Origin: Anaerolineales bacterium UBA2181 | GTDB lineage: Bacteria; Chloroflexota; Anaerolineae; Promineifilales; UBA4811 | Reading direction: 5' to 3' | DNA length: 64,000 bases | Assembly (NCBI GenBank): GCA_002328075.1 | Contig: DCVT01000015.1 | Coordinates: forward strand, 75,971-139,970 | Part shown: positions 46,688 to 61,941 of the stretch, piece by piece | Layout: each line of letters starts with the position of its first letter | Position numbering within the stretch: the stretch's first letter is position 1 | The notes under the pieces: generated by a model | Told to the model about the DNA's origin: nothing | Databases searched by the model: none | What the model saw: the letters and a program-made list of their open reading frames with translations, nothing else | Translations under genes and position numbers: made by a program

Positions 46688-48004
46688 TTAGCTGGTAGGT
46701 GTGGCGGTCGGCAGCGGCCGGGGTGTTGGGCTGGGCTTGGTGGGCACCGGTGTTGGTGTCCAAGGGCGCGGCGTGGCGGTGGCTGTGGCCCGCCACGTTG
46801 GCGATGCCATGCGGGTGGGTTCCGGTGGTTGTGTCATTTGCGTGTGGGTCGGGGGCAAGGTCCAGGGCGTTGTTGGGTTGGGGGCCGACTCGGTAGCGGT
46901 AACGACCCGCGTGACAACGACCTCTGGTGCAGGATCGCCGACTCCGGGTAGTGAACCGGTCGCCAGGTTCCAACCCAGCAATCCCAGGAAACCCAAGGTG
47001 GTAAACGCGCTGATTGCCCACGGGACGGCACTCCCGCCCCTTTTACTAGTTTTCTCCAGGGTCGCGGGAGTAAAAATCCGTGGGGCCGGCACCAACTGCT
47101 CCAACCGAAAGACAAACTCCTCAGCTGACGGGCGTCGAATCGGCGCCTTGCTCAGCGCGTCCATGATCAGTTGCTCGACCTCGGGTGGGATTTCCGGGTT
47201 GTGCTTGCGCGGCAAGGTGGGTTCGCTGTTCAGGATGGCGGTGGTGATGTGGTCCTGAGATTTCCCCTCGAATGGGCGCCGCCCGGTGAGCATCTGGTAC
47301 AGCACGGCCGCCAGGCCGTAGACGTCTCCGGCCGATTGATCCGTGACTCGCTCTGGCGGCAGCTGTCCGCGCACGAGCAGCAGCCGCTCGGGCGACATGT
47401 AATAGATGGAGCCTGCTTGCAAACCGATCCGCTCCAATTTGGCCGCAATGCCGAAATCCACCAGGACCGGTTCGATTCGCTGGTTGGCCTGAACCGCAGA
47501 GCGAAACAGCACGTTATCCGGCTTGACATCTCGATGGGCAATTCCTTTGCCGTGCATGTGAGCCAGCGCCAATCCCATTTGACAGGCGATTTCCGCGGCC
47601 TCGTCAACGGATAGCCGACCGTTCTTCCGGAGCAAAGACTGCAATGATCCGCCTTCCAGGTACTCCATGACAAAGAACCAAGGCGAACCAGGCAAGCTGG
47701 TATCGCGCGCGATGACCGGATTGGCCCGCCGACCGCCCATGGGTATGGGATAAATGCGGACAATGTTGGGGTGGAGCAGCTGTTTGAGAACCTGCACCTC
47801 ATTGTTGATGGCGTCGCTGAAGAAACGCTCTTCTTCGGGATTGCGGGCACCAGCGCGCATTACCTTCAGCGCCATGTAGACTAAGGGTCGGTTAGGCAGC
47901 TGGACGGCGGCTTTGCACACCACTGCCATGCCCCCTTGGCCGGTCGGAAAGGTCTCGACTACTGTGTAGGGACCTACCTGGCTACCGGGCGTCAAGTCGG
48001 TCAA
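46688..48004 (-). CDS. Hanks-type Ser/Thr protein kinase (catalytically competent), membrane-anchored
   Basis: GQGGMAVV, ALKVM, HRDVKPDN, DFGIA and SPE. It has a TM helix then a PT-rich extracytoplasmic tail. A TTG start follows GGAGGAGGTG. Confidence 0.85.
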   Translation of the reverse strand: MTDLTPGSQVGPYTVVETFPTGQGGMAVVCKAAVQLPNRPLVYMALKVMRAGARNPEEERFFSDAINNEVQVLKQLLHPNIVRIYPIPMGGRRANPVIARDTSLPGSPWFFVMEYLEGGSLQSLLRKNGRLSVDEAAEIACQMGLALAHMHGKGIAHRDVKPDNVLFRSAVQANQRIEPVLVDFGIAAKLERIGLQAGSIYYMSPERLLLVRGQLPPERVTDQSAGDVYGLAAVLYQMLTGRRPFEGKSQDHITTAILNSEPTLPRKHNPEIPPEVEQLIMDALSKAPIRRPSAEEFVFRLEQLVPAPRIFTPATLEKTSKRGGSAVPWAISAFTTLGFLGLLGWNLATGSLPGVGDPAPEVVVTRVVTATESAPNPTTPWTLPPTHTQMTQPPEPTRMASPTWRATATATPRPWTPTPVPTKPSPTPRPLPTATPTS

Positions 48005-48045: not shown

Positions 48046-50337
48046 CTAGTCAAAGTCCATTGGCACATAGGGCTGCGTGCTGATCTCGCCTCCGGCATCC
48101 TGGTCATCGATGGGCGGGGGTGGCGGGGGCGCCGTCGGCCGCACAGAACCTGGCGACACCATCGGTTGGGTCGACTCGAGATCAGGTTCAGGCTCAGCCG
48201 GTTCGTATGCCTCGGTGGCAAAGGGATCCACCGGTCGTTCTGCCGGCGCCGGTGTTGGCGTAGGTACACTCCGCGAGCCGGCAATGACGGTGGCCGTAGA
48301 GTCCTCCTGTTTGGTTTTTCCCGGAAAGATGGCCTGCATGGGAATCGTCTGGTCCAGGACCGATCCCTTGCCTTTGGCGGCCGGCATCGAGGATTTCAGC
48401 TTGAACTGCAGCCGGACCCGTCCCAAGTTGATGATGTCATCATGCTGCAGCCACTGTCCGTTGATCCCCACCTGTTCATAATTCACGTACGAGCCGCTGG
48501 TGCTCCCTTCGTCGTACATCATGAAACGCTCTCCCCCCTTGCGGTCCATCTCGTTGCTAATGCGGGCGTGGAGTCGCGAGACCGACCGATCGTTCAGCAC
48601 CACCTGGGCCAACTGCTCGTCTCGACCGAGCCGTATGTTTTCACCAACCAGTTCGATGGGCGGTCTGGTCGGATCGTCCCCTTCCAGGACGACCAGATAT
48701 GCCTTGACATCCTGTGTCGCCCGGGCTTTGTCCCGATCCACGAAAAACGGCTCGGTGATCTCTTTGACCTTGTTTACTACCGAGCTAATTACCTTGGGAG
48801 GGCGGCGTACCAGGATGACCACCAAGACAAGCGCCAGCAGCGACACAACCAGGGCCCCTAGCGACCATACCTCTGGGTTGCAGCGCACAATTCCCGTGAT
48901 ACCACTGTATTGGTCTTCACACGCTACCACCACCACGGGCGTGGGGGTGGGCATGGGGGTGGGGGTCGGGGTGGGAACCGGGGTCGGTGTGATGACGGTG
49001 ATGCTCAACCGGAGTTCGTCGCTCTCCGATTGCATTCCCTGAACGTCCCGTACCCGGACACGGATCGAATGGGACCCGGCCTGCAGCGAGGTCAGGTTCC
49101 AGATAATCTGGCTGCAGGGTGGGACGCAGCTTTCGCTAGCCACCACTCCGTCCACCAGGAGATCCACCTTGTCCACCTGCCGTGGATAGCCGTCGGGCCA
49201 ATTCACCTCGAAATCAACCACCTGCGTTCGCGGTTCTATGTCCTGGACCGGCATCCTGGGATCATCGGTCCGACGGGTGATTTGGGTGCCCGGTGTCGGC
49301 TGGAGGATGATCACCTGCGGTGGCCTGACGTTGATGCTGAAACCAACCCGCGCCGACTTGCCCCCGGTTTCGAGGAGCAACTCGTGGCTGCCGGCGGAAT
49401 AGAGCTTGGAAGTGTAAGTGAGTTGGTACTGCTCGCGCTGGCTGGTGAGCCTTGCGTACAGCGGTTCCAGCGAAACGCCTATCAGCTCGTCGAGGGGGGT
49501 GGGTTTGCGGCCCTCGGACGCCAACCGGTAGTGGTCTCCGTACGTGTCCAGCGACAGCCGTTTCATGTTGGACTCTGCCTGACCGCCCCAATTGTTGGCA
49601 GGACCAAAGATGATCGTATAGATCGGCACGTTCTGCGTGTTGGCAGTCCGGACAATGTCGGCTACCTCGCGGTCGCTGATCACGTCGATGCCGTCCGAGA
49701 TGACGATCACAGCCTGGAAGAGTGTGGACCGGGCCGCCTGCAGCTGGGCCAGTGCCCGCGAGACCAGGTCGTTCAGCGGCGTAGCACTGATACCCTGAGG
49801 TATCTCGTATAAATAGGTGCCGTCGCGCACCGTATTCCTGAACGGCGTAAAGGCGGCCGTATCCTCAGGAAGCGGAGCCACCTTCTGAATCTCGGTGCTG
49901 GAAAGTGGCGCCAAAACGGCGACCTGATCCATACCTTCGGCCATGTAGGATTCGGCAAAGGTGTAGACAACCTGTTTGGCTTCCTCCAACCGTGTATAGC
50001 CCGTGGCTCCGTTCTGGCGAGTGTCAAGACTGGCGTCCAAGACGAACACCAGTTGGACGCCCACCTGCACATCGTCCACGGTGACCGGTAGGGCATCGCC
50101 ATCCTCGCTCAACGCGAAATCCGCGGCGGTGAGCCCTGGCACGCGGCCGCGAGCGTCATCCGACACAATGGCGCGGACCGCAACGGTTGGGAAGGCAGAG
50201 TAATCCACCTTGCCTTGAGGCACGGCCACTTCAAAGACCTGCCCCTGAGCGCCCAACCATGTGGCGGGCGCTGCTCCAAGCAACAGGGCGATAACAAGCA
50301 CAATGCGCCAGGAAGTGATCACCGATTGTCTGTTCAT
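48046..50337 (-). CDS. Signal peptide - VWA - Ig-like - TM - FHA protein
   Basis: The N-terminal signal is followed by a VWA-like core (VFVLDASLDT ... VIVISDGID). The TM is VWSLGALVVSLLALVLVVILV. The C-terminal FHA reads IRLGRD..VSRLHARIS..GSTSGSYVN. Confidence 0.7.
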   Translation of the reverse strand: MNRQSVITSWRIVLVIALLLGAAPATWLGAQGQVFEVAVPQGKVDYSAFPTVAVRAIVSDDARGRVPGLTAADFALSEDGDALPVTVDDVQVGVQLVFVLDASLDTRQNGATGYTRLEEAKQVVYTFAESYMAEGMDQVAVLAPLSSTEIQKVAPLPEDTAAFTPFRNTVRDGTYLYEIPQGISATPLNDLVSRALAQLQAARSTLFQAVIVISDGIDVISDREVADIVRTANTQNVPIYTIIFGPANNWGGQAESNMKRLSLDTYGDHYRLASEGRKPTPLDELIGVSLEPLYARLTSQREQYQLTYTSKLYSAGSHELLLETGGKSARVGFSINVRPPQVIILQPTPGTQITRRTDDPRMPVQDIEPRTQVVDFEVNWPDGYPRQVDKVDLLVDGVVASESCVPPCSQIIWNLTSLQAGSHSIRVRVRDVQGMQSESDELRLSITVITPTPVPTPTPTPMPTPTPVVVVACEDQYSGITGIVRCNPEVWSLGALVVSLLALVLVVILVRRPPKVISSVVNKVKEITEPFFVDRDKARATQDVKAYLVVLEGDDPTRPPIELVGENIRLGRDEQLAQVVLNDRSVSRLHARISNEMDRKGGERFMMYDEGSTSGSYVNYEQVGINGQWLQHDDIINLGRVRLQFKLKSSMPAAKGKGSVLDQTIPMQAIFPGKTKQEDSTATVIAGSRSVPTPTPAPAERPVDPFATEAYEPAEPEPDLESTQPMVSPGSVRPTAPPPPPPIDDQDAGGEISTQPYVPMDFD

Positions 50338-50348
50338 GCGTTTGCCCT

Positions 50349-51347
50349 CTATTGGTTCACTTTCGTATCATATGATACAGCCATCTGACCCAGATAACCC
50401 CAGGCCTTTTCGAATACGGGCCAGGCAAAATGGCGCGCCTGGCCGTACCACGGGTCGTGGACGTAGACTCCCTGCTCGTCGTAGCCAAAGACCGTGAAGG
50501 TGTGTTCACCCCGAACGGCGTTCACCCAGGTTCGGCCATCATCGGTGTACCAGCCGGTCAGCTCAACCGGTTCCATGTCAAACGGTGCCCAGACAATGAC
50601 CGGATGATCTGCCTGAATCTGTCGCCGTAACCATGCTGCGCCTTGTCCATTGAATGCCCGAACGTGGAGCCCCAGTCTTTGGAGGCCGGCCGCCACAGGC
50701 TGGGCGTACACACCGTACCCCCGGGGATAGAGCTGGCGCGGCGGGTCGTCAAAACTCGTACCGACAAAACCGACATTGGGGTTGCCATTGGGGTCGTGAC
50801 CGACGGCCAGGAACACCGTTTGCCAGGACAGGTTGAGCCCGTAGAACTGGGCAAGGTCAGCGGCCGACGTGAACTCGCAGTTAAGGTTTCGCTCCTGTTT
50901 GCTGAAAGGCACGCCGATGATCTGGTGCACACCGGCCGTTCGCGCAATTGGGGTGGGCGTTTTCAGGTCCTCGAGTGTGGATTGGTTGCTCGAGCCCGGT
51001 GCGGCACTCGTGGCCGGCGACGGCAGATCCGTGGGCGCAACCGCCGGCGGCAACGCGACCGATTCAGGTTCGGGCAGTAAAGGCACAACGAGGTTGGTTG
51101 ATGACCCCGATTGGTTGTCTGACCCGGTACGGTGGACCACCGTTCCAGCATTTCGTGCAAGACTGCCTTCCCTGGAGATCCATCGCTCACCCAGGTAAGC
51201 AAAGAGCAAAAGACAGGCGGCTATCAGAGCGGCCAGCAGCAGTCTATATGTCAGGTTGAGCATATCTGGCTGCCGGACGGCGGATAACAGCGGGGGCAGC
51301 CTTGCCGGGCGTGGTGACGAGCCCGAATTGCCGGCCACCTGCCTCAC
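50349..51347 (-). CDS. Membrane-anchored papain-fold C39-like peptidase domain protein
   Basis: An N-terminal TM is followed by QERNLNCEFTSAADLAQFYG (Cys) and GEHTFTVFGYD (His) contexts. The GTG start at 51347 overlaps the upstream stop as GTGA, and ATG 51263 is an alternative. Confidence 0.5.
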   Translation of the reverse strand: MRQVAGNSGSSPRPARLPPLLSAVRQPDMLNLTYRLLLAALIAACLLLFAYLGERWISREGSLARNAGTVVHRTGSDNQSGSSTNLVVPLLPEPESVALPPAVAPTDLPSPATSAAPGSSNQSTLEDLKTPTPIARTAGVHQIIGVPFSKQERNLNCEFTSAADLAQFYGLNLSWQTVFLAVGHDPNGNPNVGFVGTSFDDPPRQLYPRGYGVYAQPVAAGLQRLGLHVRAFNGQGAAWLRRQIQADHPVIVWAPFDMEPVELTGWYTDDGRTWVNAVRGEHTFTVFGYDEQGVYVHDPWYGQARHFAWPVFEKAWGYLGQMAVSYDTKVNQ

Positions 51348-52300
51348 GGTGCCACCTCTAGGCGGGCGTCATCCCAGTACGTATCCTGGTTCCGGCGCGG
51401 TTGATTGGGAGAGGACCAGGCGAAAACGGTCACATAGTCGCTCTCAGAAGTGGCTTCCACGCTAAAGGCCGACCAGCCAGAGGTGGGACTTTGGCGAGCT
51501 GACCACACGATGGAGTCAGCCTTGGGGTTACTTCCGCCCAACGGGTCGATTCCGATACGCATGCCCATATCGGCCGGGTTACACGACTGGTCACTCGGGC
51601 AATCGCCAGAACCGTCGTGTGACCAGGCCTGGCCGTAGATGGTGAACCGTAACTTGACCCCCGGGGCCACCTGTACTCGCTGCATGACGCCGGCGGTGTA
51701 GGTGCCAAAGGTCTTGAAATACTGCTGGGCGCGCTCGCCGCTGTGCACCCGGCTCAGATGGGGCGCCTCGGCCGGCTTGAACTCGGGGGCAAAGTCCGCG
51801 TCCGACCACTGGACATACCATGGAATCCAGCCTTCGGGCACATTGAACTCGGTTCGGCCGGCATAGGGCCCGTATTGGCCTTCGAAACCTGGGTTGGTGA
51901 GCAGATTGACGCCGACTGGAACCACCGAGCCGGGCTTTTGCGTTGCAGCCGGCGGGCCGGTCGGCGAGGGCGATGGCGGACTGGTTGGAATCACTGCCCG
52001 ACGGGTGGGAGTGATCTTGGGGGTGGGTACCGCAGTGGGCGTGGGCGGTCTGGTGGGCAGCGTGGTGGCGGTTGGAAGCGGTGGTGGTGTCTCTGAAGGC
52101 AATGCCGCCGTCACCAGTGGCTCGGCTGTCGGCGGATCGCCCGACACCAGGCAGCCGACACTAGAGATCACCAGGAGCGCGCACAACCCGAGCCACGAGC
52201 GTACGTGCCCACGAGTGCGGCGGGTCCTGTCCAGTGTTCCTGGTACCGATCGATCAGCGATCCTACGCGTCGGACACGACATGCGCCAAGCTCCGCTCAT
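51344..52300 (-). CDS. Secreted protein with PT-rich linker and CBM4/9-like domain
   Basis: It has a TM/signal segment (LGLCALLVISSVGCLV), a PT-rich region and NLLTNPGFEGQY...VHSGERAQQYF, typical of carbohydrate-binding jelly-rolls. Confidence 0.4.
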   Translation of the reverse strand: MSGAWRMSCPTRRIADRSVPGTLDRTRRTRGHVRSWLGLCALLVISSVGCLVSGDPPTAEPLVTAALPSETPPPLPTATTLPTRPPTPTAVPTPKITPTRRAVIPTSPPSPSPTGPPAATQKPGSVVPVGVNLLTNPGFEGQYGPYAGRTEFNVPEGWIPWYVQWSDADFAPEFKPAEAPHLSRVHSGERAQQYFKTFGTYTAGVMQRVQVAPGVKLRFTIYGQAWSHDGSGDCPSDQSCNPADMGMRIGIDPLGGSNPKADSIVWSARQSPTSGWSAFSVEATSESDYVTVFAWSSPNQPRRNQDTYWDDARLEVAP

Positions 52301-52350: not shown

Positions 52351-55300
52351 CTATGGGTTCCTGGGCACTGATGCTTTGAGAATCGCGCACGCCGGGCAAC
52401 TCCCGTCCTTACGGATGATGGCATACCCTGCTTGTGGGTCATCGCCAAAGACCTCAAAGTCCACGTTCCAAATGATGGCCATCCTGACTTTGCCGCTGGC
52501 CGCTGCCAGGCTCACTGCCTGTCCTAACCATTCGGCTTGTTCATAGACGCTGGTGTCCTGGGCCCAGGCAAAATTCGAGGGTAGCTGGCCGTATCCCTCT
52601 GGACTGAGATAACCCAACTCGGTAAGACAGAGGGGTTTCTTACCGCCAAATGCGTTCCAGTAGGTGTCAACCATGCCCCAGAAATAACGGGTATAGTGCT
52701 CGCTGCGCGGGTCTCCGCTGGTCTCATCCGGCGGGATGATCCCCTCGTTGTAGTGGATGCCGACGCAATCGATGAATCGATCGGCGCCTGCACTGGCCAT
52801 TCCCTCCACGTAGCGCTTGTCGCTCCAGACCTGCACTCCATCGTCAACACCGGTTGGAGCCGGAGCCCCGCTGATCACCAGCGTCCCGACCCCGCGTGAC
52901 CGAATTTGGCTTGAGGCCTTGGCCAGCAGATCGACATACTGGTTGGGGCTGATCTGACCGGTGGGCCATTCGCGGTCAATGTTCATCTCGTTCCAGACCT
53001 CAATTGCTTCCACCTGCAATTCTGCCAGACCACCCACGAAAGCTGCATATTGGTCAAAGTACCCGGATCCGCCGGCCAAGTCTTCTCGGTGACCGACCAC
53101 GCTCAGCAGCACTTTGAATCCCTGCGTGTGCCAGGTGTTGATGTCCTCTGCCAGGTTCAGCGCGCTGTCACCCGGCCCGTATCGGATCTGCTTCTTGACC
53201 CAGGTCATGCCGGCCTGGCGCATTTCGCCCAGGTGATCGTTGCCGCGTATCTGCCCGCCTAACCCAAAGTTGGGAACCGGGGTCGTGGTGGGCGTTACAC
53301 TGGGTGTAGCGGTCGGCAGGTTGCACGGGTCTGGATCCAGACGGTCCACTATGCCGTCGAAATCGCTATCTGGATTGTTCGGGTTGGGGCAGAGAATCGG
53401 ACCCTCACCGAACAGCTGCAAGGAGAGCGCCACCTCTTCGCCATCCAGCCAGGTGTCGTTATCCGTGTCGTTGTCGAGCGGGTCGGTTTTGTACTTATAG
53501 ACCTCGTCGCCGTCGGACAACCCATCGGCATCGGTATCATATTTGTAGGGATCGGTGCGGTAGATGTTGATCTCGTCCGCGTTCGACAGCCCATCGCCGT
53601 CGCTGTCGAGCGCTCCCCAGGTGGCAGTGGCGTTAGGTGTGCTGGTGGGAGTCAGCGACGGCGTCGGTGTAGCGGTGGAGACGGGTGTCTGGGATGGGGT
53701 CCCACTGGCAGTCGGAGTGGGAGATGGGAAAGCTCGGTCGTAAAGCCCAGGGCCAACGGCGGCCGCCAGGCCCGCCAGGGCACAACAGAGGACCATGAGC
53801 AATACCGGTAGCCAGGAGGGAAGCCAAGCCCGCAGCCGGAATTGGGCGGGAAGCACCCGTGGCGGCGCCGTCGAGGATGTGACAGTCACGATCAACGGCA
53901 TCATCTTGGTGCCGCCTAGCCAATTGAGCTTGCGCGGCGCTACCCGCAGTTTCACCGCCTGACTGGCAGCCGGGGCAAGCTCTACTCTCTCGGGTTCAAC
54001 CTGGCACATCAGCGCCTGGGCGCTATCTTTGGCGGCCACCGTATACTCGGAAGGGGCATTGCCCTGGTTAGTGATGGTCACCTCGAGTGCACCTCGCGTG
54101 CGGGTTTCGACATCGGCCGGAGCTAGTTCGGCGTCGAACCGGGCAAAGGGCTCCACTACCAGGACGGCGTCCACTTTCTCCACAACGTCCTTGCGCTCCC
54201 GCGAGTGGATCAGAAGCTGGATCGGATGGGGTCCCGCGGTCGTCGTGGGTTCGGGCGGCGGATGAAAGGTCAGTGTGATGGGCGCCTGTTGACGCGGATT
54301 AAGCTGAACCGGTCGCACCGGGCAGGTCACCCAGTCTGGAGGAACTCCGAAAACCCGCACGGAAAAGTGGTCCACAATTGAGGTCATGTTTTGCAGGTTG
54401 ACCTGGAGCACCCCGGGTGTGCTGCCTGGAGTGGCCCGGACTCGGCCGTCTTCCATCCGGACGTTGACGGTGGATGCTGGACCGGGGGAGGCGACTGCCG
54501 CCTGCTCCGCGGCCGCAGCCGGAACAGGCTCCGGTTGGCCCACCGATTCCAATCGTAGTTCAAATGGGGGGATTCGAATGGCGGATCCGGGCGAGAGTGT
54601 CTCCGGTTGTCGAGGAAGGAGCCGAGCATCGCCGATGAATGTCCCGTTTGCACTGCCCAGGTCCTGGATCACGACATCCGACGGTTGCACTAGCAGCTCT
54701 GCATGGTGCCGCGAGACCCGGCTGTCGGGCAGCGGCAAGTCACACTTGGCATCCCGTCCGATGACCAGGCGCTGCGGAATCTGGAGCGGCACAATGCGCG
54801 TGGATTCGCCTGGCCGGCTGATGTGGAGTTCCAGAGTGCCGGTGGGACGACGGGACAGATCGGGGCTGGACAGCGCAGCATCGGACTTGTCGGCCTGTGG
54901 CTGGGCTAACGATACGGCACCTGCCAACGCTTCCCACCCGCTGCCGTGAGGCAACTTGAGCTGTCGGCGGAGGTTCTGCAACTGCTCGGCAACCTCCTCT
55001 ACGCTGGGCCGTTTTCGCGGGTCTTTGGCGATCATCGCCAACACCAGGTTCGCCAACTCGGCGGGCGTGTCAATGCGGTGCTGGCTTGGATTCTTGGGAA
55101 CAGCCTTGGTGTGCATGGCGACCGCCTGTTCCACCGACGACACCTGAAACGGCGGTTGACCGGTACTCAATTCGTACAACACGACCCCCGCCGAATAGAC
55201 GTCGGTTTTGACGGTGGCGGGCGATGCGACGCACTGCTCGGGTGAGAGAAAAGTCAATGCTTCCCTCGTCTGCAGGTCAGAGTTGGCCTGGAAAGAGGAT

Positions 55301-55794
55301 TCCAGCAGCCGGCCGATGCCGACCTCCTTGAGGGTGGCCTGGTAAGCCTGGTCATGGCGGACAAGCTGCACGTTCTTTGGGCGCATCGCAAGGTGCAACA
55401 ATTGATGACCATGAACGTACTGCAGAGCATCGGCGATCTGGCGCCCCAATTGGACGACGTCAGCCCAGGGCAGTGGACCGTCGGTGTGTTCCAGCACCTG
55501 TCTTAACGTGGGACCAGAGGCATAGGCCATCATGAGAAAGAGCTGACCGTGCCATGTTCCCTGGCCGATGGTTCGGACAATCCCCGGATGGTCGAGCTTG
55601 GTCAACCGCGTGGCCAGTTCCTGAAATTGAGCCAGGAACTCCTTCTGCTGGCTCAGAGTGTTGGCAAACACCCGGAAAGCTACGTCAGTGCGCTCCACAG
55701 GATGGAAGGCACGATAGACGACCCCCAGGTTGTCTTCGTCAAGCCGCTCGCGGATGCGGTATCCCTCGATGAGTTGGCCTCTCCAATCCTCCAT
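52351..55794 (-). CDS. Pseudokinase - FHA - Ig-like - TM - TSP3-type Ca-binding repeats - GH-A-like barrel (1147 aa)
   Basis: It has a kinase fold with degenerate catalytic motifs (VAFRVF for VAIK, HLAMRPKN for HRDLKPxN, EVG for DFG). The FHA reads LVIGRD..VSRHHAEL..GSANGTF. The TM is WLPVLLMVLCCALAGLAAAV. Asp-rich repeats follow (DSDGDGLSNADE, DTDADGLSDGDE, DNDTDNDT). The C-terminus has VWNEMN and LTELGY. Confidence 0.7.
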   Translation of the reverse strand: MEDWRGQLIEGYRIRERLDEDNLGVVYRAFHPVERTDVAFRVFANTLSQQKEFLAQFQELATRLTKLDHPGIVRTIGQGTWHGQLFLMMAYASGPTLRQVLEHTDGPLPWADVVQLGRQIADALQYVHGHQLLHLAMRPKNVQLVRHDQAYQATLKEVGIGRLLESSFQANSDLQTREALTFLSPEQCVASPATVKTDVYSAGVVLYELSTGQPPFQVSSVEQAVAMHTKAVPKNPSQHRIDTPAELANLVLAMIAKDPRKRPSVEEVAEQLQNLRRQLKLPHGSGWEALAGAVSLAQPQADKSDAALSSPDLSRRPTGTLELHISRPGESTRIVPLQIPQRLVIGRDAKCDLPLPDSRVSRHHAELLVQPSDVVIQDLGSANGTFIGDARLLPRQPETLSPGSAIRIPPFELRLESVGQPEPVPAAAAEQAAVASPGPASTVNVRMEDGRVRATPGSTPGVLQVNLQNMTSIVDHFSVRVFGVPPDWVTCPVRPVQLNPRQQAPITLTFHPPPEPTTTAGPHPIQLLIHSRERKDVVEKVDAVLVVEPFARFDAELAPADVETRTRGALEVTITNQGNAPSEYTVAAKDSAQALMCQVEPERVELAPAASQAVKLRVAPRKLNWLGGTKMMPLIVTVTSSTAPPRVLPAQFRLRAWLPSWLPVLLMVLCCALAGLAAAVGPGLYDRAFPSPTPTASGTPSQTPVSTATPTPSLTPTSTPNATATWGALDSDGDGLSNADEINIYRTDPYKYDTDADGLSDGDEVYKYKTDPLDNDTDNDTWLDGEEVALSLQLFGEGPILCPNPNNPDSDFDGIVDRLDPDPCNLPTATPSVTPTTTPVPNFGLGGQIRGNDHLGEMRQAGMTWVKKQIRYGPGDSALNLAEDINTWHTQGFKVLLSVVGHREDLAGGSGYFDQYAAFVGGLAELQVEAIEVWNEMNIDREWPTGQISPNQYVDLLAKASSQIRSRGVGTLVISGAPAPTGVDDGVQVWSDKRYVEGMASAGADRFIDCVGIHYNEGIIPPDETSGDPRSEHYTRYFWGMVDTYWNAFGGKKPLCLTELGYLSPEGYGQLPSNFAWAQDTSVYEQAEWLGQAVSLAAASGKVRMAIIWNVDFEVFGDDPQAGYAIIRKDGSCPACAILKASVPRNP

Positions 55795-55806: not shown

Positions 55807-58281
55807 TCACTGACCGAATGTGAACCGCTGAAAGCTAGCCGGTTGCTCCCAGTTCTGGGACCAGTCCACGGCGGCAGCCAGTATCACATACTCATTGGGC
55901 TGCAAACCCCACTCGTCACCCTTTTGATCGGTTTCATTGCTGCTGCACCGCACCATATCGCTTTCGGTGAGTCGAAGCGACAGGTCTCCGTACACGTTCC
56001 AGGTCTGTCCGCAGTCCAGGCTGTAATGGATCTCGCGAACTCCTTGTCGGCTTTCGTCCTGGCCCTGCAACTCCACGGTGACGGTCCCGATGTATACGCC
56101 GGTCGTCTGTACGCCGAACAGACGGATGGTCGTCTTGGGTGGGATGATGTCTTCAATCGGCCGGCCTGTGACGGTGTATTTGCCGGGCAGGTTCAGGAAC
56201 ACTTCGACGTATGGCCGGCCGCTCTGGTCAGCCAAAACGCGCGATTCGGGCACCACGACCCAGTTTCCTAACCCCGTGGCCGAATCGATCTCGTATCGGT
56301 GCACCTTGATCGATGCCAAATCCACCTTGCTGACATTCGCCCGGGTCAACCACACGGGAACCCGAGTGGGATTGGCGGGATCGGCAGTGGTAAAGATAAA
56401 GGTGGCCAGGCTGACAAGGCCCTGGAACGGAGTCGGGTCCAACTGGCGGCGGCTCTGGACCTGAGTGCACCCACCTCCTTCTTCAGCCGGGTCCCACGTG
56501 TGTATCCACAGGTATTCACTGCCGCCGCACCCTATTGCGTCCATGGGATCAACCTGCATCTCGAGGCTGGGGCTAAAACCGTAGGGGTCGATGGCTTCGG
56601 CCAATTCGAACCGCCCGTTGTTGTTGCAGTCACGCCGGACCTCGAAATGGAGGTGGTGCCCTGTGCTATTCCCGGTGTTTCCCATGGTGCCGATGCGTTC
56701 TCCCTGCTGGATCCTGGTTCCGGGTGCCAGGGCGAGCATCCGGTCAAAGTGGGCATCCGGCTCCAGGTGTAGATAGCTGGTCTGGTATTTGCCGCGGTCG
56801 ACGCGGTCGTGGGTGAGCAGCACATAGTTGTTGCCCAGACTGTCAGTTCCGGCCCCGGCAAAAACGGCGTCGGCCACCGCCAAGAGGGCTGTCTCGATGG
56901 GCGTGTTGACCCTTTGCCAACCATAGACGGAAAAGTCATACCCTGGATGACCGCTGTAGAAATCGCCGCTCTGGCCCGGGTTGGACGTCCGATCCAGGCT
57001 GATGGAGCCGTCAAAGAGGACCATGGTGTCGCGGGCCTGAAGCGAGTCGATGACGTCAGCCTCGCCGCGGTAGAGGGGGAACTGGTGGTCAAAAAAGCTG
57101 TTGATGCGCCCGCCAGCTGCCGTCCTTTGGGATGCAGCGCGGAACTGCTCGGCCGTGCCGAATCCCTGGTTCTTGCCGTCGTAAGGAAAGGGCAACTCCA
57201 TCCAACCGCCCGACTGCGGGGTGCAACCGGGCAGCGGCGCGTAGGTAGGGGTGGGTGAGGGCAGCATGACGCCAGTGCTGGTAGAGACAGTCGGGCGCGG
57301 GGTCTGAGTGGCCACGTCAACGGCAGTCGGAGGAACCGGAGTCATGGTGGCCTCCACGGGTTCGGTGGGCGAGATCTGCAGCTCGGCCACCGGCGTCGGC
57401 GTGGGCCGCAAGAATACCTGATACAGGCCGGCGCTGATGCCCACCAATAAACAAAGACCTCCAAATACCATGGAGACCGGCAGCCACGGAAGGTGGCGCA
57501 GCCATTCGAGCCAGACCGCGCCGCCCGGCACCGAAGTTTTCTCGCCGGTCTCTGCCGTGACGACCTGGTCGCCCAAAGGCGCTGGTGCTGCCTCTGCCCA
57601 CTGGATCAGCGCGAACGGCCCCAGCTGAAGGTGGGTACCTTCCGGCCAAACCTGTGCCGTGTTGGCCGGCAGCGCCTCGTTGCCTATTCGGGTTGTATCG
57701 CGCTGGCTCAGGTCGGTTACCCACAACTGGTTTCCCTTCTGGTGTACGCGACACTGCTGGAGCGACACACCAGGATCGTCCAGCACCATATCGCATTTCG
57801 AATCCCGGCCTATCAGGATCGGTTGGTCACCTACCTTCACCGTCGAGGGCCGCCCGTGACCACAGGCAATCCTCCATGTGCGACTGGCGGTGAGAGGATG
57901 ACGTTCCACAACCTCCGGCTTGGCGGCAGAAGCGGCCACCGGTGGCTCAGGGCGGCGCTGCCGCGAAGCGGATTCCTCCAACTGGAGGGAAAACGGGCCA
58001 ATTCGCAGCTCCTGGTCTGGCATCCACCGGGCGCGCTGTCCCGGCTCCAACCGGTTGGAACCTAGGTAGGTGCCGTTGTGGCTTCCCAAGTCGGTCACCG
58101 TCACACGGCCGTCCGCGGTTTCCATCTGGCAGTGGCGTCGAGAGACCTTGGGGTCGTCAAGCTGAAGGTCGCACGACGGGTCGCGCCCAATTACCTGGAC
58201 ACTGACCTCCAGATTCACCCTGCGTTCGGGTTGGTCGTTATGGCGGACCTTGAGAGCTACTTGACGTGAGGACGCATCCAT
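55807..58281 (-). CDS. FHA - FHA(degenerate) - TM - M23 peptidase - Ig-like protein
   Basis: FHA1 reads VIGRD..VSRRHCQM..GSHNGTY. FHA2 reads LIGRD..VSLQQCRV..SQRDTT. The TM is WLPVSMVFGGLCLLVGISAGL. The M23 motifs are HPGYDF, TGNSTGHHLHFEV. Confidence 0.75.
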   Translation of the reverse strand: MDASSRQVALKVRHNDQPERRVNLEVSVQVIGRDPSCDLQLDDPKVSRRHCQMETADGRVTVTDLGSHNGTYLGSNRLEPGQRARWMPDQELRIGPFSLQLEESASRQRRPEPPVAASAAKPEVVERHPLTASRTWRIACGHGRPSTVKVGDQPILIGRDSKCDMVLDDPGVSLQQCRVHQKGNQLWVTDLSQRDTTRIGNEALPANTAQVWPEGTHLQLGPFALIQWAEAAPAPLGDQVVTAETGEKTSVPGGAVWLEWLRHLPWLPVSMVFGGLCLLVGISAGLYQVFLRPTPTPVAELQISPTEPVEATMTPVPPTAVDVATQTPRPTVSTSTGVMLPSPTPTYAPLPGCTPQSGGWMELPFPYDGKNQGFGTAEQFRAASQRTAAGGRINSFFDHQFPLYRGEADVIDSLQARDTMVLFDGSISLDRTSNPGQSGDFYSGHPGYDFSVYGWQRVNTPIETALLAVADAVFAGAGTDSLGNNYVLLTHDRVDRGKYQTSYLHLEPDAHFDRMLALAPGTRIQQGERIGTMGNTGNSTGHHLHFEVRRDCNNNGRFELAEAIDPYGFSPSLEMQVDPMDAIGCGGSEYLWIHTWDPAEEGGGCTQVQSRRQLDPTPFQGLVSLATFIFTTADPANPTRVPVWLTRANVSKVDLASIKVHRYEIDSATGLGNWVVVPESRVLADQSGRPYVEVFLNLPGKYTVTGRPIEDIIPPKTTIRLFGVQTTGVYIGTVTVELQGQDESRQGVREIHYSLDCGQTWNVYGDLSLRLTESDMVRCSSNETDQKGDEWGLQPNEYVILAAAVDWSQNWEQPASFQRFTFGQ

Positions 58282-58363
58282 TGTATTGTTCTACTATCAT
58301 CTAGTTCGCGCGTCATATCTTTATCAGTTCCACTTTTGCGGAACTATGGGAGACGAGGTGATC

Positions 58364-60295
58364 ATGAAGCGCATCTGCACACACTATTATATTCCCTTTT
58401 TGCTTCTCGCGCTGCTATTAGCCCCAGTTTCGGCCGGTGCTCAGGATTCACCGTCGCGAATCCAGATCTCGTGGTTGGATACCAGTCATTTTCCGCAGAT
58501 CGAAGTCCATCTGATCGCTTCCAAACCCACGGGTGGCCGATTCCAGGGTTTGTTTGTCAACTCGCTTCAGGTCACCGAAAACGGAACTGCACGCGATCCA
58601 TCCATGTACGATGCTCCTCGGGGCACCGCGATTACCTTTCTCATTGACGCGGATCAGAAGGCCCAAGCAGAATGGGACCAGATTCGGCAGGGAATCGAGA
58701 GTTACGTCTCGGCTACCGAGAGCTGGATGGATGAGGATTTGGATGTGACCACCCTTATTGTGGCTAACGGCGGCGATTGGCGCGTCCTTGTGCAGGACAC
58801 ACCTTTTCGGAACGATGTGCTGAATGCCTTCATCACTGACACCGGTGCGTATTATCAGCCAACTTTCCATCCCGTTACTCCGCTCTATGACCTGGCATAC
58901 CAGGCGCTACAGGGGATGCCTGCCAAGACCCCGACTCCGGGCATGTACCGGGCGCTCGTGCTGCTGTCCAGCGGGGATCCCGGCGCCAGCACGTCCAGCC
59001 CGGAAGCGGTGGTGTCACTGGCCAAGGAGATGGGCGTTCCGCTGTTCGCGGTGCTTGTCGGCGACAGTGCGGCTGGCGAGACCATCATGCAGCAGTTGGC
59101 CAGCAACAGCGGAGGTCAGTTCCTGCGACTTGATCCGTCCCAAACCCTGGTTCCGCTCTGGCAAGCGCTGAGCAGCCATCACGAGCAGTATGTGATCAGC
59201 TATCGCTCGGGAATCGTGTCCTCCGGAGCGCACAATGTCAAGGTTCTGGTGAGCGAAGGAGTCCAGGACACTCAGGCATTCGACATTACCATTCTCAACC
59301 CGGGTGTGGAGATCACGTTGCCCGAAGCCAACGCCACCATCCTGCGCAAACCGACTGAGTCCAGCGCCGACGTGAGCGGCTTTGAACCAAGTATCCAGGC
59401 GGTAAAATACCTGTGGACCTGGCCGGATGGTTTCGAGCGCAAGGTAAACCAGGTTCAGCTGCGCGTCAATGGCGCTGTCCAACTACAACTCGACCTCACC
59501 GCGACCGATGACCGTAGCCTGACGTGGGACATTTCGACGCTCCCATCGGGTCGGTATTCTATCCGGGTAGAGGTGACCGACGAACTGGGTCTCACCGGTG
59601 TGAGTGCCGAGATACCGGTGACGATACAACTGCAAACATCGGAACCTACGGTGGCACCAGAGCCGACCGCCCAACCTACTCCCGGGCCAAGCTTCGTGGA
59701 CAATGCCCTCAAGACTGCCAAGAAGAACCTGCCCTGGATTGGTGCCGGTGGTCTGTCCCTGTCGGCTCTCTTGGTCACCTTTTTCATGTTCAAGCGGCGG
59801 CTGGCCTTCGCGGGAAAGACCCCAGTGGGTTTCCTTAGGAGCCTGCCCTTTCTCAGGCCGCTGGACCGCGCACTCCGGACGATCGAGCGGGTAACGGGAC
59901 CCATTGGCGTACCCAAACCCAAGAAACCTGATGTCAAGGCACCCGCACGCGCCAAATCGAGCGGTGCGGCGGTTGAGAAAACGCCAGCGGCACCGGCCGC
60001 GCGCGTGGAAGTGACGCAAGGGCCCTCGCTGCCGGGTCCGGTGGAGATCATCGAGGAGACCAGCTTCGGACGTTCGGCCGAGCAAGCCGGAGTGGCGCTG
60101 GTGGACGCGACGGTCTCCCGGCGTCATGCGAGCATCCTTCCCGAATTCGGCGGCAAATACCGGATTTACAATCATAGTCCTCAGCAGACCTGGGTTAACG
60201 AACAACGAGTTCCGGAACACGGGCTGTTGCTGGAGGACGGCGACGAAATCCGGATGGGCAAGGTCAAGATGAAGTTTGTTCATCGGCGAAGGTAG
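58364..60295 (+). CDS. Signal peptide - VWA-like - Ig-like - TM - FHA protein (paralogous architecture to 48046..50337)
   Basis: The signal is MKRICTHYYIPFLLLALLLAPVSAGA. The VWA-like core has a degenerate MIDAS (ITFLIDADQK ... LVLLSSGD). The TM is GAGGLSLSALLVTFFMF. The C-terminal FHA reads SFGRS..VSRRHASI. A GAGGTG RBS precedes ATG 58364. Confidence 0.65.
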   Translation: MKRICTHYYIPFLLLALLLAPVSAGAQDSPSRIQISWLDTSHFPQIEVHLIASKPTGGRFQGLFVNSLQVTENGTARDPSMYDAPRGTAITFLIDADQKAQAEWDQIRQGIESYVSATESWMDEDLDVTTLIVANGGDWRVLVQDTPFRNDVLNAFITDTGAYYQPTFHPVTPLYDLAYQALQGMPAKTPTPGMYRALVLLSSGDPGASTSSPEAVVSLAKEMGVPLFAVLVGDSAAGETIMQQLASNSGGQFLRLDPSQTLVPLWQALSSHHEQYVISYRSGIVSSGAHNVKVLVSEGVQDTQAFDITILNPGVEITLPEANATILRKPTESSADVSGFEPSIQAVKYLWTWPDGFERKVNQVQLRVNGAVQLQLDLTATDDRSLTWDISTLPSGRYSIRVEVTDELGLTGVSAEIPVTIQLQTSEPTVAPEPTAQPTPGPSFVDNALKTAKKNLPWIGAGGLSLSALLVTFFMFKRRLAFAGKTPVGFLRSLPFLRPLDRALRTIERVTGPIGVPKPKKPDVKAPARAKSSGAAVEKTPAAPAARVEVTQGPSLPGPVEIIEETSFGRSAEQAGVALVDATVSRRHASILPEFGGKYRIYNHSPQQTWVNEQRVPEHGLLLEDGDEIRMGKVKMKFVHRRR

Positions 60296-60324: not shown

Positions 60325-61941
60325 CTATTCGCTCAACGAGATGATGTAGGGCCCGATTCTGATGTCAGTGCCCGCAGCCCATGGCTCCAATTGCTGGGCT
60401 TCCAGGCGTCGGTCCTCCATTACCGTGCCATTGGTGGTGCCCAGATCTTTGACTTTGACCTGTTTACCGTCCCAAAAGATGGCGCAGTGTCGTTTGGAGA
60501 CCCCCGGATCGGCGATGACCATGTCGCAATCGGGCAGCCGGCCGATGTAGACCGGTTTTGCACCGAGGGCGACGACGGACGGCTTTCCGTCATCACAGCG
60601 GATGGTCGGAACCTGGAGATCTGGCTCCGGTTCAGGAGGCGGAGCGGTCGGCGATGGTTGGGCAGGCATTTGCCCCCAGTACAGCGTAAACAATCCCAAA
60701 CGCAAGGGGACACCCTTGGGCCAGGTCGTTGGGACGTCGGGCCCCAATTCCTCCTCGGCCAGGAAGGTCTTGTTGGTGCTGTGCAGGTCCCGCACTTTCA
60801 TCTCAGAGTTTATCCGCCGAATCTCGCAGTGGCGTTTGGAGATTTGGCGGTCTTCTGAATCAAGCAACAGGTCGGCCGGCGGCAGACGACCGGCGACGAC
60901 CACATCGCTTTTCATGGCAAAGTGGTCGACCGGCCGATCCTGATAAAAAACCTGAATCAGGACTGATGCCTGCTCGGATGACCATCCCTCCGCTTCTGAA
61001 GGGGTCACCACGGCGCCGGCTTGCACCTGGAAACCCTCCCCGGTCGGCACCGGGGTAAGGGTTGGTGACAGTTTGGCCAATTGGTCGGCAACAGCGCCAG
61101 CAGATGGTGGCCGTTGGGTTCGATCCTTGGCCAACATGGCCAGAACAAGTCTGTCGATGCTGGCAGGAAGGCCAGCCAGGTGAGAGCTGGGCGGCGGCGG
61201 CGATTGGCTCCCATGGTAGTAGACGGCTTGAGCCAACGTAGATACCGGAAAAGGACGTTGGCCGGTGAGTACCTCGTACAGCATGACACCCAGCGAATAG
61301 ATGTCCGAGGACTCGTTGAGCGACTCACCACGGCACTGCTCCGGCGACATGTAGTGCGGGGTACCGATCCTTTGCGTCGTGTGCACCGAGACGCCGGGAG
61401 CCACGCGCAGACGCGCCAGGCCGAAATCGCTGATCACAGGATGATAAGGGCATCCGAATTCGCCGGTCCCAGGGGTCGTGCCGGTTTCCAGGAGAATGTT
61501 GTCTGGTTTGAGGTCCAGATGAAGCACTCCCTGTGAATGTGCATAGTCCAGCGCCCGGCATACCTGTTCCATGATGGCCACCCCGATGGATGTTGGTAGG
61601 CCAAACGGCGAATCACGCAATAGGGTGCGCATGGTGGGCCCGGTGACCAGGTCCATCATCAAGAAGGTAACGCCGGTAGCGTCGTGGCGACCAAAATTGC
61701 GGACGCGCACGATATTGGGATGCTTCAGCCGGGCTACTGTCTGTGCTTCGCGTTTGAACTGCGCGTAGAAACCCTCCCGCTCCGCCAGCTCTGGACGCAT
61801 CACCTTGACGGCCACGGTCAACTCGAGATCCGGATGCTGGGCCCGGTAGACCATGCCCATGCCACCCTCTCCCAGCTTTTCCTGGATGACGTAGTTGAGA
61901 AAGTTGGCGCCGATCAGCGCGTCCCTGTTGGAAGGGGGCAT
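60325..61941 (-). CDS. Cytoplasmic non-RD Ser/Thr kinase with two C-terminal FHA domains
   Basis: GEGGMGMV, VAVKVM, HLDLKPDN (Leu in place of the RD Arg), DFGLA and SPEQ. FHA1 reads VAGRL..ISKRHCEI..HSTNKTF. FHA2 reads YIGRL..VSKRHCAI..GTTNGTV. It starts 10 nt after the stop of the FHA::gpI gene. Confidence 0.8.
   Translation of the reverse strand: MPPSNRDALIGANFLNYVIQEKLGEGGMGMVYRAQHPDLELTVAVKVMRPELAEREGFYAQFKREAQTVARLKHPNIVRVRNFGRHDATGVTFLMMDLVTGPTMRTLLRDSPFGLPTSIGVAIMEQVCRALDYAHSQGVLHLDLKPDNILLETGTTPGTGEFGCPYHPVISDFGLARLRVAPGVSVHTTQRIGTPHYMSPEQCRGESLNESSDIYSLGVMLYEVLTGQRPFPVSTLAQAVYYHGSQSPPPPSSHLAGLPASIDRLVLAMLAKDRTQRPPSAGAVADQLAKLSPTLTPVPTGEGFQVQAGAVVTPSEAEGWSSEQASVLIQVFYQDRPVDHFAMKSDVVVAGRLPPADLLLDSEDRQISKRHCEIRRINSEMKVRDLHSTNKTFLAEEELGPDVPTTWPKGVPLRLGLFTLYWGQMPAQPSPTAPPPEPEPDLQVPTIRCDDGKPSVVALGAKPVYIGRLPDCDMVIADPGVSKRHCAIFWDGKQVKVKDLGTTNGTVMEDRRLEAQQLEPWAAGTDIRIGPYIISLSE

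Follow-up and report, generated by a model that had tools for sequence, protein, structure and literature searches.

A stretch of 64,000 nucleotides from an uncultured filamentous Chloroflexota (Anaerolineae) bacterium (contig DCVT01000015.1), called the window in what follows, encodes a membrane protein in which a kinase-like domain stripped of its catalytic residues is joined, in a single chain, to an FHA domain inside the cell and to a probable sugar-cutting enzyme outside it. The gene for this protein, referred to here as the focal protein, lies at positions 52351-55794 on the minus strand and specifies 1147 amino acids from an ATG start; the original prediction, made from the letters of the sequence, had found this open reading frame (ORF) and left its strand unstated. 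Alignment and ortholog comparison support the view that the kinase domain is a pseudokinase, and the protein may link phosphorylation signalling, cell-wall cutting and the contractile injection system (CIS) encoded beside it. The explanation that we favor, with middling confidence, is that of a phospho-dependent scaffold that places wall hydrolases. The components of the locus are all of known kinds and the novelty lies in their combination and placement; the mechanistic steps proposed below are all inferred from sequence.

The focal protein and its degenerate kinase domain

The focal protein begins with the residues MEDWRGQL, as do its orthologs, and then runs through a Hanks-type kinase fold, an FHA domain, two beta-sandwich domains, one transmembrane helix, a PT linker, four TSP3 repeats and a (beta/alpha)8 barrel of glycoside hydrolase (GH) clan GH-A. 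Its start codon is only 12 nt past the stop of the upstream gene, which encodes a Peptidase_M23 protein, and is preceded by a Shine-Dalgarno-like GAAAGG stretch. The assignment of the whole ORF as a bitopic membrane protein draws on Pfam, on AlphaFold2 (AF2) models and on a set of nine full-length orthologs (54-100% identity, all metagenomic). The kinase-like domain covers residues 8-280 (54955..55773, on the minus strand like all parts of the gene), with a strong Pfam Pkinase (PF00069) match over residues 20-270 (E 3e-29, 102.6 bits against a cutoff of 31.7). It is followed by the FHA domain at residues 319-418 (54541..54840), modelled with a predicted local distance difference test (pLDDT) score of ~80-87 and matched by Pfam FHA at residues 344-408 (E 2.8e-18, 66.5 bits against a cutoff of 20.7). 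In this domain the phosphothreonine-binding residues, namely G346-R347, S361-R362-x-H364 and N383-G384-T385, are invariant in the nine orthologs. By its Pfam match and its conserved GR, SxxH and NG loops, this domain looks competent as a phosphothreonine reader.

The interval between the FHA domain and the membrane is filled by two Ig-like beta-sandwiches, at residues 443-547 (54154..54468) and 553-654 (53833..54138). Both are all-beta and confident in the full-length AF2 model (pLDDT 84-92, and 84-89 for the first); the first also has a sub-cutoff match to NCBIfam choice_anch_T (E 5.8e-6), the second has weak Pfam matches to FixG_C and HYDIN Ig, and weak Ig-like matches in Pfam fall at residues 570-623. 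The transmembrane helix is the only one in the protein, which has no signal peptide. It is placed at about residues 661-680 (53755..53814; hydropathy 2.59), or more narrowly at 662-680, and AF2 models a helix at 661-679. Because two Arg residues flank this helix on its N-terminal side, the predicted topology is N-in/C-out, with the kinase, FHA and Ig-like domains in the cytoplasm and the remainder outside. On the extracytoplasmic side, Asp-rich TSP3-type repeats, of the calcium-binding type, occupy residues 726-830 (53305..53619); they are recognized by Pfam TSP3_bac (E 1.6e-8, 34.7 bits against a cutoff of 25), and a motif scan finds four D-x-D-x-D motifs, at 730, 753, 774 and 809. Six invariant cysteines lie past the transmembrane helix in the TSP3 region (C802 and C824) and in the GH-A region, and the others are the membrane-embedded C670 and C671 and the cytoplasmic C188. 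The original prediction had outlined the same series of an FHA domain, two Ig-like segments, a transmembrane helix, TSP3-like repeats and a GH-A barrel, and Pfam, AF2 and Foldseek bear it out; the motifs that it quoted (SPEQ, DVYSAGVVLYEL, KDPRKRP, WNEMN and LTELGY) are all present in the translation.

The register of the kinase domain was fixed by a phmmer alignment to PknB (E 5e-28), PknB-type kinases being its best relatives in the PDB. In this alignment the sequence VAFRVF pairs with VAVKVL of PknB, which puts Arg41 in the place of the beta3 lysine (PknB K40). The catalytic loop LHLAMRPKN pairs with IHRDVKPAN, converting HRD to H134-L-A136 and the loop Lys to Arg with Asn141 kept, and KEVGIGR pairs with MDFGIAR, converting DFG to E157-V-G. 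The Gly-loop is degenerate, with DEDNLG opposite GFGGMS. The alignment thus upholds all four substitutions that had been claimed for the Gly-loop, the beta3 Lys, HRD and DFG, and no alternative register brings the catalytic residues back. The APE/SPEQ motif is retained, and in the full-length AF2 model both lobes of a kinase fold are predicted with confidence (pLDDT 80-94), the activation segment being disordered.

The nine orthologs differ in how far this decay has gone. None of them has the HRD Asp (the motif reads H-L-A, H-L-G or H-L-S) and all have Arg in place of the loop Lys, so that these two substitutions are universal; most of the others in the original prediction are not conserved. 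The beta3 position is Lys in five orthologs and Arg in four. A canonical GEGxxG loop survives in five (P0005-P0009), and the same five keep the DFG Asp, four as D-L-G and one as D-L-S; the beta3 Lys is also present in four of these five. The alphaC Glu has been lost in three of the orthologs that retain the Lys. By this comparison the focal protein is the most degenerate form, and belongs to a sub-branch that lost all of these motifs.

Because saturation of synonymous sites is expected among orthologs at 55-69% amino-acid identity, constraint on the domain was gauged by per-domain identity. The mean pairwise identity of the kinase domain is 57-58%, like that of the FHA and Ig domains, and the linkers are at 26-34%. 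The invariant fraction of the C-lobe is twice that of the N-lobe, with the invariant patches SPEQCVA and SQHRID. These values show the dead kinase fold to be still under constraint, as expected for purifying selection at the protein level.

The ancestry of the domain can be approached through the two-domain beta-sandwich cassette that separates the FHA domain from the transmembrane helix. This Ig-Ig cassette has 3761 representatives in a library clustered at 50%, usually at the same position, in proteins of 900-1400 aa. All 44 cassette proteins that were sampled carry Pkinase, 43 carry FHA and 17 have TSP3 repeats, and the ectodomains of the sample vary to include beta-propellers, Laminin_G and FGE-sulfatase. 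The Lys, the HRD Asp, the Asn and the DFG Asp are all kept in 53 of 61 sampled family members, which argues that their loss in the focal protein is derived; the HRD Asp is present in 55 of the 61, and four other members have lost the HRD Asp only. The focal protein is accordingly a degenerate member of a large family of receptor kinases that are active and share its kinase-FHA-Ig-Ig-transmembrane cassette.

Outside its orthologs, the focal kinase domain is most similar to that of the adjacent Ser/Thr kinase (STK) encoded at 60325-61941, an STK-FHA-FHA protein, with 37% identity; identity to the other kinase of the cluster and to PknB is 25-27%. In three distant Anaerolineae loci (L027 7270-13728; L039 4701-11114; L020 3-5039) a homolog of this STK and a homolog of the focal protein are joined in a single polypeptide of ~2100 aa. 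The fused proteins contain, in order, an active kinase, a set of three FHA domains, a second and degenerate kinase, an FHA domain, the Ig-Ig cassette, a transmembrane helix, four TSP3 repeats, SH3_3 and the GH-A barrel. The second kinase carries the lesions GQNSLT, HRS and DFS in L027; VALR, YRD with an RPES loop and EFG in L020; and GQSDIA, HRD with a TPES loop and DFA in L039. Each fusion is thus damaged differently, which is the pattern expected once catalysis is no longer selected. A Rosetta-stone fusion of this kind speaks for a joint role of active kinase and pseudokinase and, with the paralog relationship, lends indirect support to the original idea that the focal protein partners with the active kinases; the tandem kinase-pseudokinase layout recalls that of the JAKs. 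At the other end of the series, the ortholog of Ca. Trichofilum aggregatum (L004 12442-14598, JADJUV010000052.1) has no kinase domain at all, and consists of FHA-Ig-Ig-transmembrane-TSP3-GH in 718 aa.

The extracytoplasmic GH-A barrel

The barrel occupies residues 842-1140 (52375..53271, minus strand). When the C-terminal 310 residues were modelled by AF2 with a 42-sequence alignment, the result was an eight-stranded beta/alpha barrel with a pLDDT of 89.6 and a predicted template modelling score (pTM) of 0.91. In this model N935-E936, of the WNEMN motif, come just after strand beta4 (930-935) and E1059, of TELGY, lies in strand beta7 (1055-1060); we propose that E936 is the acid/base and E1059 the nucleophile. 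The Glu residues of the NE and TE motifs are invariant in all orthologs.

A Foldseek search of the PDB with the model gave 212 matches at E<=1e-3, mostly GH39, GH26, GH5, GH113 and GH53 enzymes. The top match was PslG, a GH39 enzyme (E 1e-10, TM-score 0.70-0.73, 15-16% identity), and the Clostridioides difficile wall protein Cwp19 was also among the matches. PslG again came first when a 16-sequence profile was compared with the PDB (E 2.6e-9, only over positions 15-143). The profile pairs WNE of the focal protein with WNEPN of PslG, and TELG with TEWG, and the same profile is matched by GH39 xylosidases at ~3e-4. Used singly in a PDB search, the GH-domain sequence found only a marginal GH5 match (E 0.45), and no Pfam GH family reaches its cutoff in the focal protein, GH113 being sub-threshold (E 0.046, residues 1052-1110). 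The GH-like C-terminal domain of the original prediction is accordingly recovered as an AF2 barrel with GH-A matches in Foldseek and a Glu pair at beta4 and beta7. As modelled, the ectodomain has the clan GH-A fold and catalytic geometry, and it is apparently an active, sugar-cutting enzyme.

The GH-A domain has 3399 homologs, mostly proteins of 400-540 aa with LysM or SH3_3 before the domain, and those with source names are from Anaerolineae or other Chloroflexota. Across 42 members of this family, N98 of the WNExN motif is invariant and E99 and E222, which are the proposed catalytic Glu pair, are at least 90% conserved. Because LysM and SH3_3 are wall-binding, these fusions point to the cell's own wall glycan, rather than an environmental one, as substrate, and the ectodomain most likely acts on a wall-associated glycan of its own cell. 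In other Anaerolineae (L007, L008, L009, L040, L053, L073 and L082) a Ser/Thr kinase gene recurs 1-10 kb from stand-alone LysM/SH3-GH-A genes, and these kinases are 31-39% identical to the kinase domain of the STK-FHA-FHA protein of the cluster.

The gene module and the adjoining injection system

Housekeeping metabolism fills the left two-thirds of the window. From ~42.7 kb to the right edge there is a tight series of minus-strand genes, with one plus-strand gene inside it, and the focal gene belongs to this series, a context that the original prediction had missed. In the direction of the minus strand, the series enters the window with the 3' part of a baseplate J-like gene (TIGR02243; 63118..64000, minus strand), the full gene crossing the window end and encoding 655 aa on the source contig. 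A 277-aa ORF from an internal ATG had made this gene look truncated or like a pseudogene, a reading that was rejected because the frame is open to 64000 and the gene on the contig is complete. The next gene (61952..63121, minus strand) encodes a CIS baseplate protein of the Cis12/Tail_P2_I kind with an N-terminal FHA domain, as recognized by Pfam and by NCBIfam CIS12_fam and tail_P2_I. It is followed by the STK-FHA-FHA protein (60325..61941, minus strand), whose sequence motifs (GEGGMG, AVKV, HLD and DFG) are those of an active non-RD Ser/Thr kinase with two FHA domains behind it. The focal H-L-A/G and the H-L-D of this kinase share their Leu, which is consistent with an origin of the pseudokinase by duplication of the STK-FHA-FHA gene.

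The plus-strand gene (58286..60295) encodes, by domain and transmembrane scans, a signal/transmembrane segment, a VWA domain, Big_7, a transmembrane helix and a C-terminal FHA domain. It is followed, again on the minus strand, by the gene immediately upstream of the focal gene (55807..58281, with the 12-nt gap mentioned above), which specifies an 824-aa FHA-FHA-transmembrane-Peptidase_M23 protein with its HxxxD and HxH zinc ligands intact. In every syntenic locus the gene just downstream of the focal gene encodes a conserved, membrane-anchored protein, here of 318 aa and with no detectable family (51344..52300, minus strand); it has no match in Pfam, NCBIfam or the PDB, permissive thresholds included. 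This protein has a PT-rich linker followed by ~190 aa, and its motif NLLTNPGFEG suggested a CBM4_9-like domain, a guess that is unsupported. Next come, all on the minus strand, a membrane-anchored Peptidase_C39_2 protein (50349..51347), which is found here and in L003 and is absent from L001 and L002; a second protein with signal/transmembrane segment, VWA, Big_7, transmembrane helix and FHA (48046..50337); a second active Ser/Thr kinase (46688..48004), with HRD, DFG and the Lys present; and a PP2C phosphatase with a transmembrane helix at residues 288-306 (45347..46651). The twelfth gene of the series, after PP2C, encodes a membrane-anchored Ig-repeat protein. The original prediction held that the two other kinases of the cluster keep all of the canonical motifs; HRD, DFG and the Lys are present in the kinase at 46688-48004, and the one at 60325-61941 departs from the claim in having HLD, with the Arg lost and the catalytic Asp, the Lys, DFG and the Gly-loop all present.

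The module contains eight FHA domains spread across six proteins, and in each FHA-bearing membrane protein the FHA is predicted to be cytoplasmic. The two VWA-Big_7-transmembrane-FHA paralogs (58286-60295, plus strand, and 48046-50337, minus strand) have their VWA and Big_7 domains on the extracytoplasmic side and their FHA domain in the cytoplasm. The PP2C protein has an extracytoplasmic tail of ~130 aa, and its homolog in L027 is an 809-aa protein with TSP3-like repeats. A reading of the module as an anti-phage defence locus was dropped, since PADLOC gave only generic kinase matches (PD-T4-6, mad6 and PglW), to all three kinases, and none to the other module genes. Far from the module, the left part of the window contains two paralogous Fe-S/flavin oxidoreductases with the same domain series, of 1523 aa (1952-6523, plus strand) and 1521 aa (8916-13481, plus strand). 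They sit 2.4 kb apart with a histidine kinase that binds cyclic nucleoside monophosphate (cNMP) between them.

Upstream of baseplate J, the source contig (L083) encodes two gp19-type tube proteins, a CIS_tube/LysM protein, VgrG and gp25. By its family content (Cis12 family, CIS_tube, gp19, baseplate J and VgrG), the adjoining machine is a CIS of the extracellular (eCIS) type. The module comes directly after the genes for VgrG, PAAR, gp25, baseplate J and the FHA-Cis12 protein in the source contig and in L001, L002 and L003, with no PAAR gene on the window's own contig. The same gene order surrounds the orthologs P0003, P0008 and P0002, and a reduced form is found in L027. Fusions of FHA to P2_I, as in FHA-Cis12, make up ~75 protein clusters, and the ones with named sources are all from Chloroflexota (Anaerolineales, Thermoflexales and Caldilinea); more distant P2_I homologs have no FHA. 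One FHA-Cis12 locus (L084 15974-17498, minus strand) has GHL10-family genes on the opposite strand a few kb downstream, GHL10 being named for a hydrolase-like domain that is also found in Cwp19. No family specific to type VI secretion (T6SS) appeared in Pfam and NCBIfam scans of the window's cluster ORFs or in the precomputed Pfam assignments of genes in L083 and L001-L003, which for the window's locus covered the genes short of its sheath-proximal end.

CIS of Chloroflexota have been imaged as intracellular particles and are related to the cytoplasmic type of Streptomyces (PMC12998442). The Streptomyces cytoplasmic CIS are reported to cause cell death and lysis (PMC12998442, PMC10066040), and their firing needs the membrane protein CisA (PMC12237407). 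No account of a CIS or eCIS module with FHA or kinase proteins in Chloroflexi or Anaerolinea was found in the searchable literature.

Possible roles and comparison with known systems

The favored model treats the two halves of the focal protein as devices of different kinds. The cytoplasmic half, with its dead kinase, FHA domain and two Ig-like spacers, would be a non-catalytic, phospho-dependent docking hub, and the extracytoplasmic half would be a PslG-like retaining glycanase of clan GH-A carried on a stalk of calcium-binding TSP3 repeats. The adjacent active STK-FHA-FHA paralog would phosphorylate Thr residues on members of the module; the FHA domains of the focal protein, the M23 protein and Cis12 would read these marks, and PP2C would remove them, making the assembly reversible. 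The pseudokinase itself may supply a docking or allosteric surface. The resulting transmembrane complex would place, or license, the GH-A glycanase and the M23 endopeptidase where the CIS meets the envelope. The MviN-FhaA and TssL-Fha pairs discussed below, and the need for CisA in Streptomyces, are precedents for such a scheme. The original prediction of a dead-kinase scaffold acting with the active kinases is supported in part; phosphorylation by those kinases, their allosteric regulation and glycan sensing are hypothetical. Our middling confidence covers this explanation as a whole, that is, the docking hub, the tethered glycanase, the phospho-dependent assembly and the coupling to the CIS together.

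Several observations weigh against this model. The CIS link of the module is one of adjacency only. In L004 a module with M23, unknown, FHA and PP2C proteins lies among housekeeping genes with no CIS nearby, and two CIS loci with FHA-Cis12 (L084 and L085) have no kinase or GH-A module. By its domain content, the kinase-less ortholog in L004 shows that at least one lineage can do without the pseudokinase domain. There is no invariant Thr in the linkers or the activation segment of the focal protein across its orthologs, where only S167 is invariant. The five orthologs with both the Gly-loop and the DFG Asp, four of them with the beta3 Lys as well, may still bind nucleotide or have a weak, HER3-like activity. 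PslG-type enzymes cut exopolysaccharide, not peptidoglycan. Finally, the focal protein and its orthologs are known solely from metagenomic sequence.

A bolder version of the model, which we consider improbable, is that the module is the membrane- and wall-crossing apparatus of an unrecognized injection system assembled through phosphothreonine in Anaerolineae. Its active kinases would mark transmembrane proteins, the FHA domain of Cis12 would dock the phage-tail-like particle onto them, and the FHA-tethered glycanase, with the pseudokinase as its organizer, would join the M23 peptidase in opening the wall exactly above the baseplate. If this were true, the module would do in Chloroflexota what the membrane complex does in the T6SS, with components of a wholly different make.

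A different role for the same hydrolases would be regulated autolysis or particle release, with the GH-A and M23 enzymes as the wall-degrading arm of a CIS-linked death or release programme and the STK/FHA/PP2C layer, pseudokinase included, holding them off until triggered. By analogy with phage and tailocin lysis cassettes and with the stress-induced, CIS-dependent cell death of Streptomyces, this would account for two types of wall hydrolase, with M23 zinc ligands and GH-A Glu pair intact, lying side by side right after CIS structural genes. The eCIS-type gene content (CIS_tube and the Cis12 family) fits it, as do the intracellular location of Chloroflexota CIS and their kinship with the lytic CIS of Streptomyces (PMC12998442, PMC10066040). 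However, no holin- or spanin-like genes were seen, and hydrolases that are permanently tethered to the membrane, with large cytoplasmic FHA parts, fit localization better than wholesale lysis. In L004 the module has no CIS beside it, and GH-A domains that stand alone with LysM/SH3 belong to ordinary secreted proteins, of which there are many. We regard an autolysis cassette as unlikely.

We are equally doubtful that the flow of information runs from the outside in. On such a scheme the GH-A barrel would be mainly a sensor of glycan or wall fragments, comparable to the PASTA domains of PknB, and the dead kinase would dimerize with the active STK-FHA-FHA kinase and switch it allosterically, in a general envelope-stress pathway that merely neighbors the CIS. 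The highly variable ectodomains attached to one cytoplasmic cassette (beta-propellers, Laminin_G and FGE-sulfatase among them) are the pattern expected of sensors, and fusion with an active kinase gives the JAK-like tandem arrangement. The most conserved patches within the kinase domain are in the C-lobe and the alphaG region, and the occurrence of the L004 module without a CIS also suits a receptor. Against a receptor, no ortholog has lost either catalytic Glu or the NE motif, which also persist in at least 90% of the wider family, and a pure binding module would have no need of them. Furthermore, the L004 ortholog has dispensed with its kinase and yet kept the FHA, Ig, transmembrane and GH parts, which argues that the conserved core is an FHA-tethered enzyme rather than the pseudokinase.

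The kinase domain might finally be an enzyme after all, with a non-canonical mechanism or another nucleotide or ligand, so that "pseudokinase" would be a misnomer: the fold as a whole survives with Asn141 and the APE-type motif, the Gly-loop, the Lys and D-L-G persist in some orthologs, and HER3-like kinases without the catalytic Asp keep weak activity, but we think this very improbable, given that four of four classic positions for ATP, Mg or catalysis are replaced in the focal protein and acidic residues fill its Gly-loop, that the alphaC Glu is lost even in orthologs keeping the Lys, and that inactivating combinations differ from lineage to lineage, a signature of relaxed selection on catalysis.

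With the phospho-dependent scaffold as the preferred reading, the locus is of interest in several respects. Bacterial pseudokinases are few and poorly understood, and the combination of graded decay, domain deletion and fusion to an active paralog provides a natural setting in which to ask why a pseudokinase is retained in bacteria. The focal protein physically couples phosphothreonine signalling on the inside to a probable glycan hydrolase on the outside, beside an FHA-bearing CIS baseplate, and the locus offers testable candidates for the regulation, anchoring and wall passage of contractile systems other than the T6SS. In the searchable literature we found no description of a single chain that combines a pseudokinase, FHA and an extracytoplasmic GH-A enzyme, of a graded series of decay, deletion and fusion in such a pseudokinase, or of its setting in a phosphorylation module rich in FHA domains that follows a CIS baseplate with an FHA of its own.

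Among characterized pseudokinases, a close parallel is MviN of M. tuberculosis, which is phosphorylated by PknB and then recruits the FHA domain of FhaA to control peptidoglycan synthesis (PMC12599244). Both MviN and the focal protein are transmembrane envelope proteins with an intracellular Hanks-type pseudokinase and an extracytoplasmic domain related to carbohydrate. However, MviN is a polytopic flippase of Actinobacteria (family ActPs3) whose FHA partner is a separate protein, whereas the focal protein has a single transmembrane helix, an FHA domain in the same chain, a probable hydrolase in place of a lectin-like ectodomain, a Chloroflexota host and a CIS-associated locus. EssB/YukC is also a bitopic membrane pseudokinase, and as a structural hub of the type VIIb system it contacts the FHA domains of EssC/YukB (PMC9600267). 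In contrast to the focal protein, EssB (from Firmicutes) is highly divergent, with no Pkinase match in Pfam, no FHA domain of its own and no enzymatic ectodomain. The published bSTK atlas lists seven families of bacterial pseudokinases (ActPs1-3, GLW, DLHK, DYD and CP1); judging from their descriptions, none combines FHA, a transmembrane helix and GH and none is centered on Chloroflexota, which would set the focal protein apart.

The PASTA kinases (PknB, StkP and PrkC) have the same plan of a cytoplasmic kinase, a single transmembrane helix and a wall-directed ectodomain, and provide the best matches to the focal kinase sequence; NCBIfam PknB_PASTA_kin gives E 3e-47, far below the cutoff. Unlike the focal protein they are active, have PASTA ectodomains and carry no FHA or Ig cassette in the chain. 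For the barrel, the counterpart is PslG of P. aeruginosa, an envelope-located endoglycanase that acts on the cell's own polysaccharide (PMC11912335). PslG shares the WNEPN acid/base and TE-x-G nucleophile motifs and is the best match by both structure and profile, although it is a stand-alone enzyme with no signalling domains and the significant sequence alignment is confined to the N-terminal half of the barrel. The focal barrel also differs from PslG in having no Pfam GH39 match, and its family has LysM/SH3 partners that point to the wall.

A close parallel for the locus as a whole is the T6SS, in which Fha binds phosphothreonine on the membrane protein TssL and thereby activates the machine (PMC3953482). 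As in the T6SS pathway of PpkA, PppA and Fha1/TagH, the genes of a contractile, phage-tail-like machine are accompanied by those for a Hanks kinase, a PP2C phosphatase and FHA proteins. The PpkA kinase of the T6SS has a VWA domain, a likeness to the VWA-containing transmembrane partners in the module. The machine itself is of the eCIS type, and in contrast to the T6SS no TssB/C-ClpV or TssJLM was seen in the parts of the locus examined. The module further departs from the T6SS in having an FHA domain fused to a baseplate protein, eight FHA domains in all, a pseudokinase, and wall hydrolases tethered to FHA domains.

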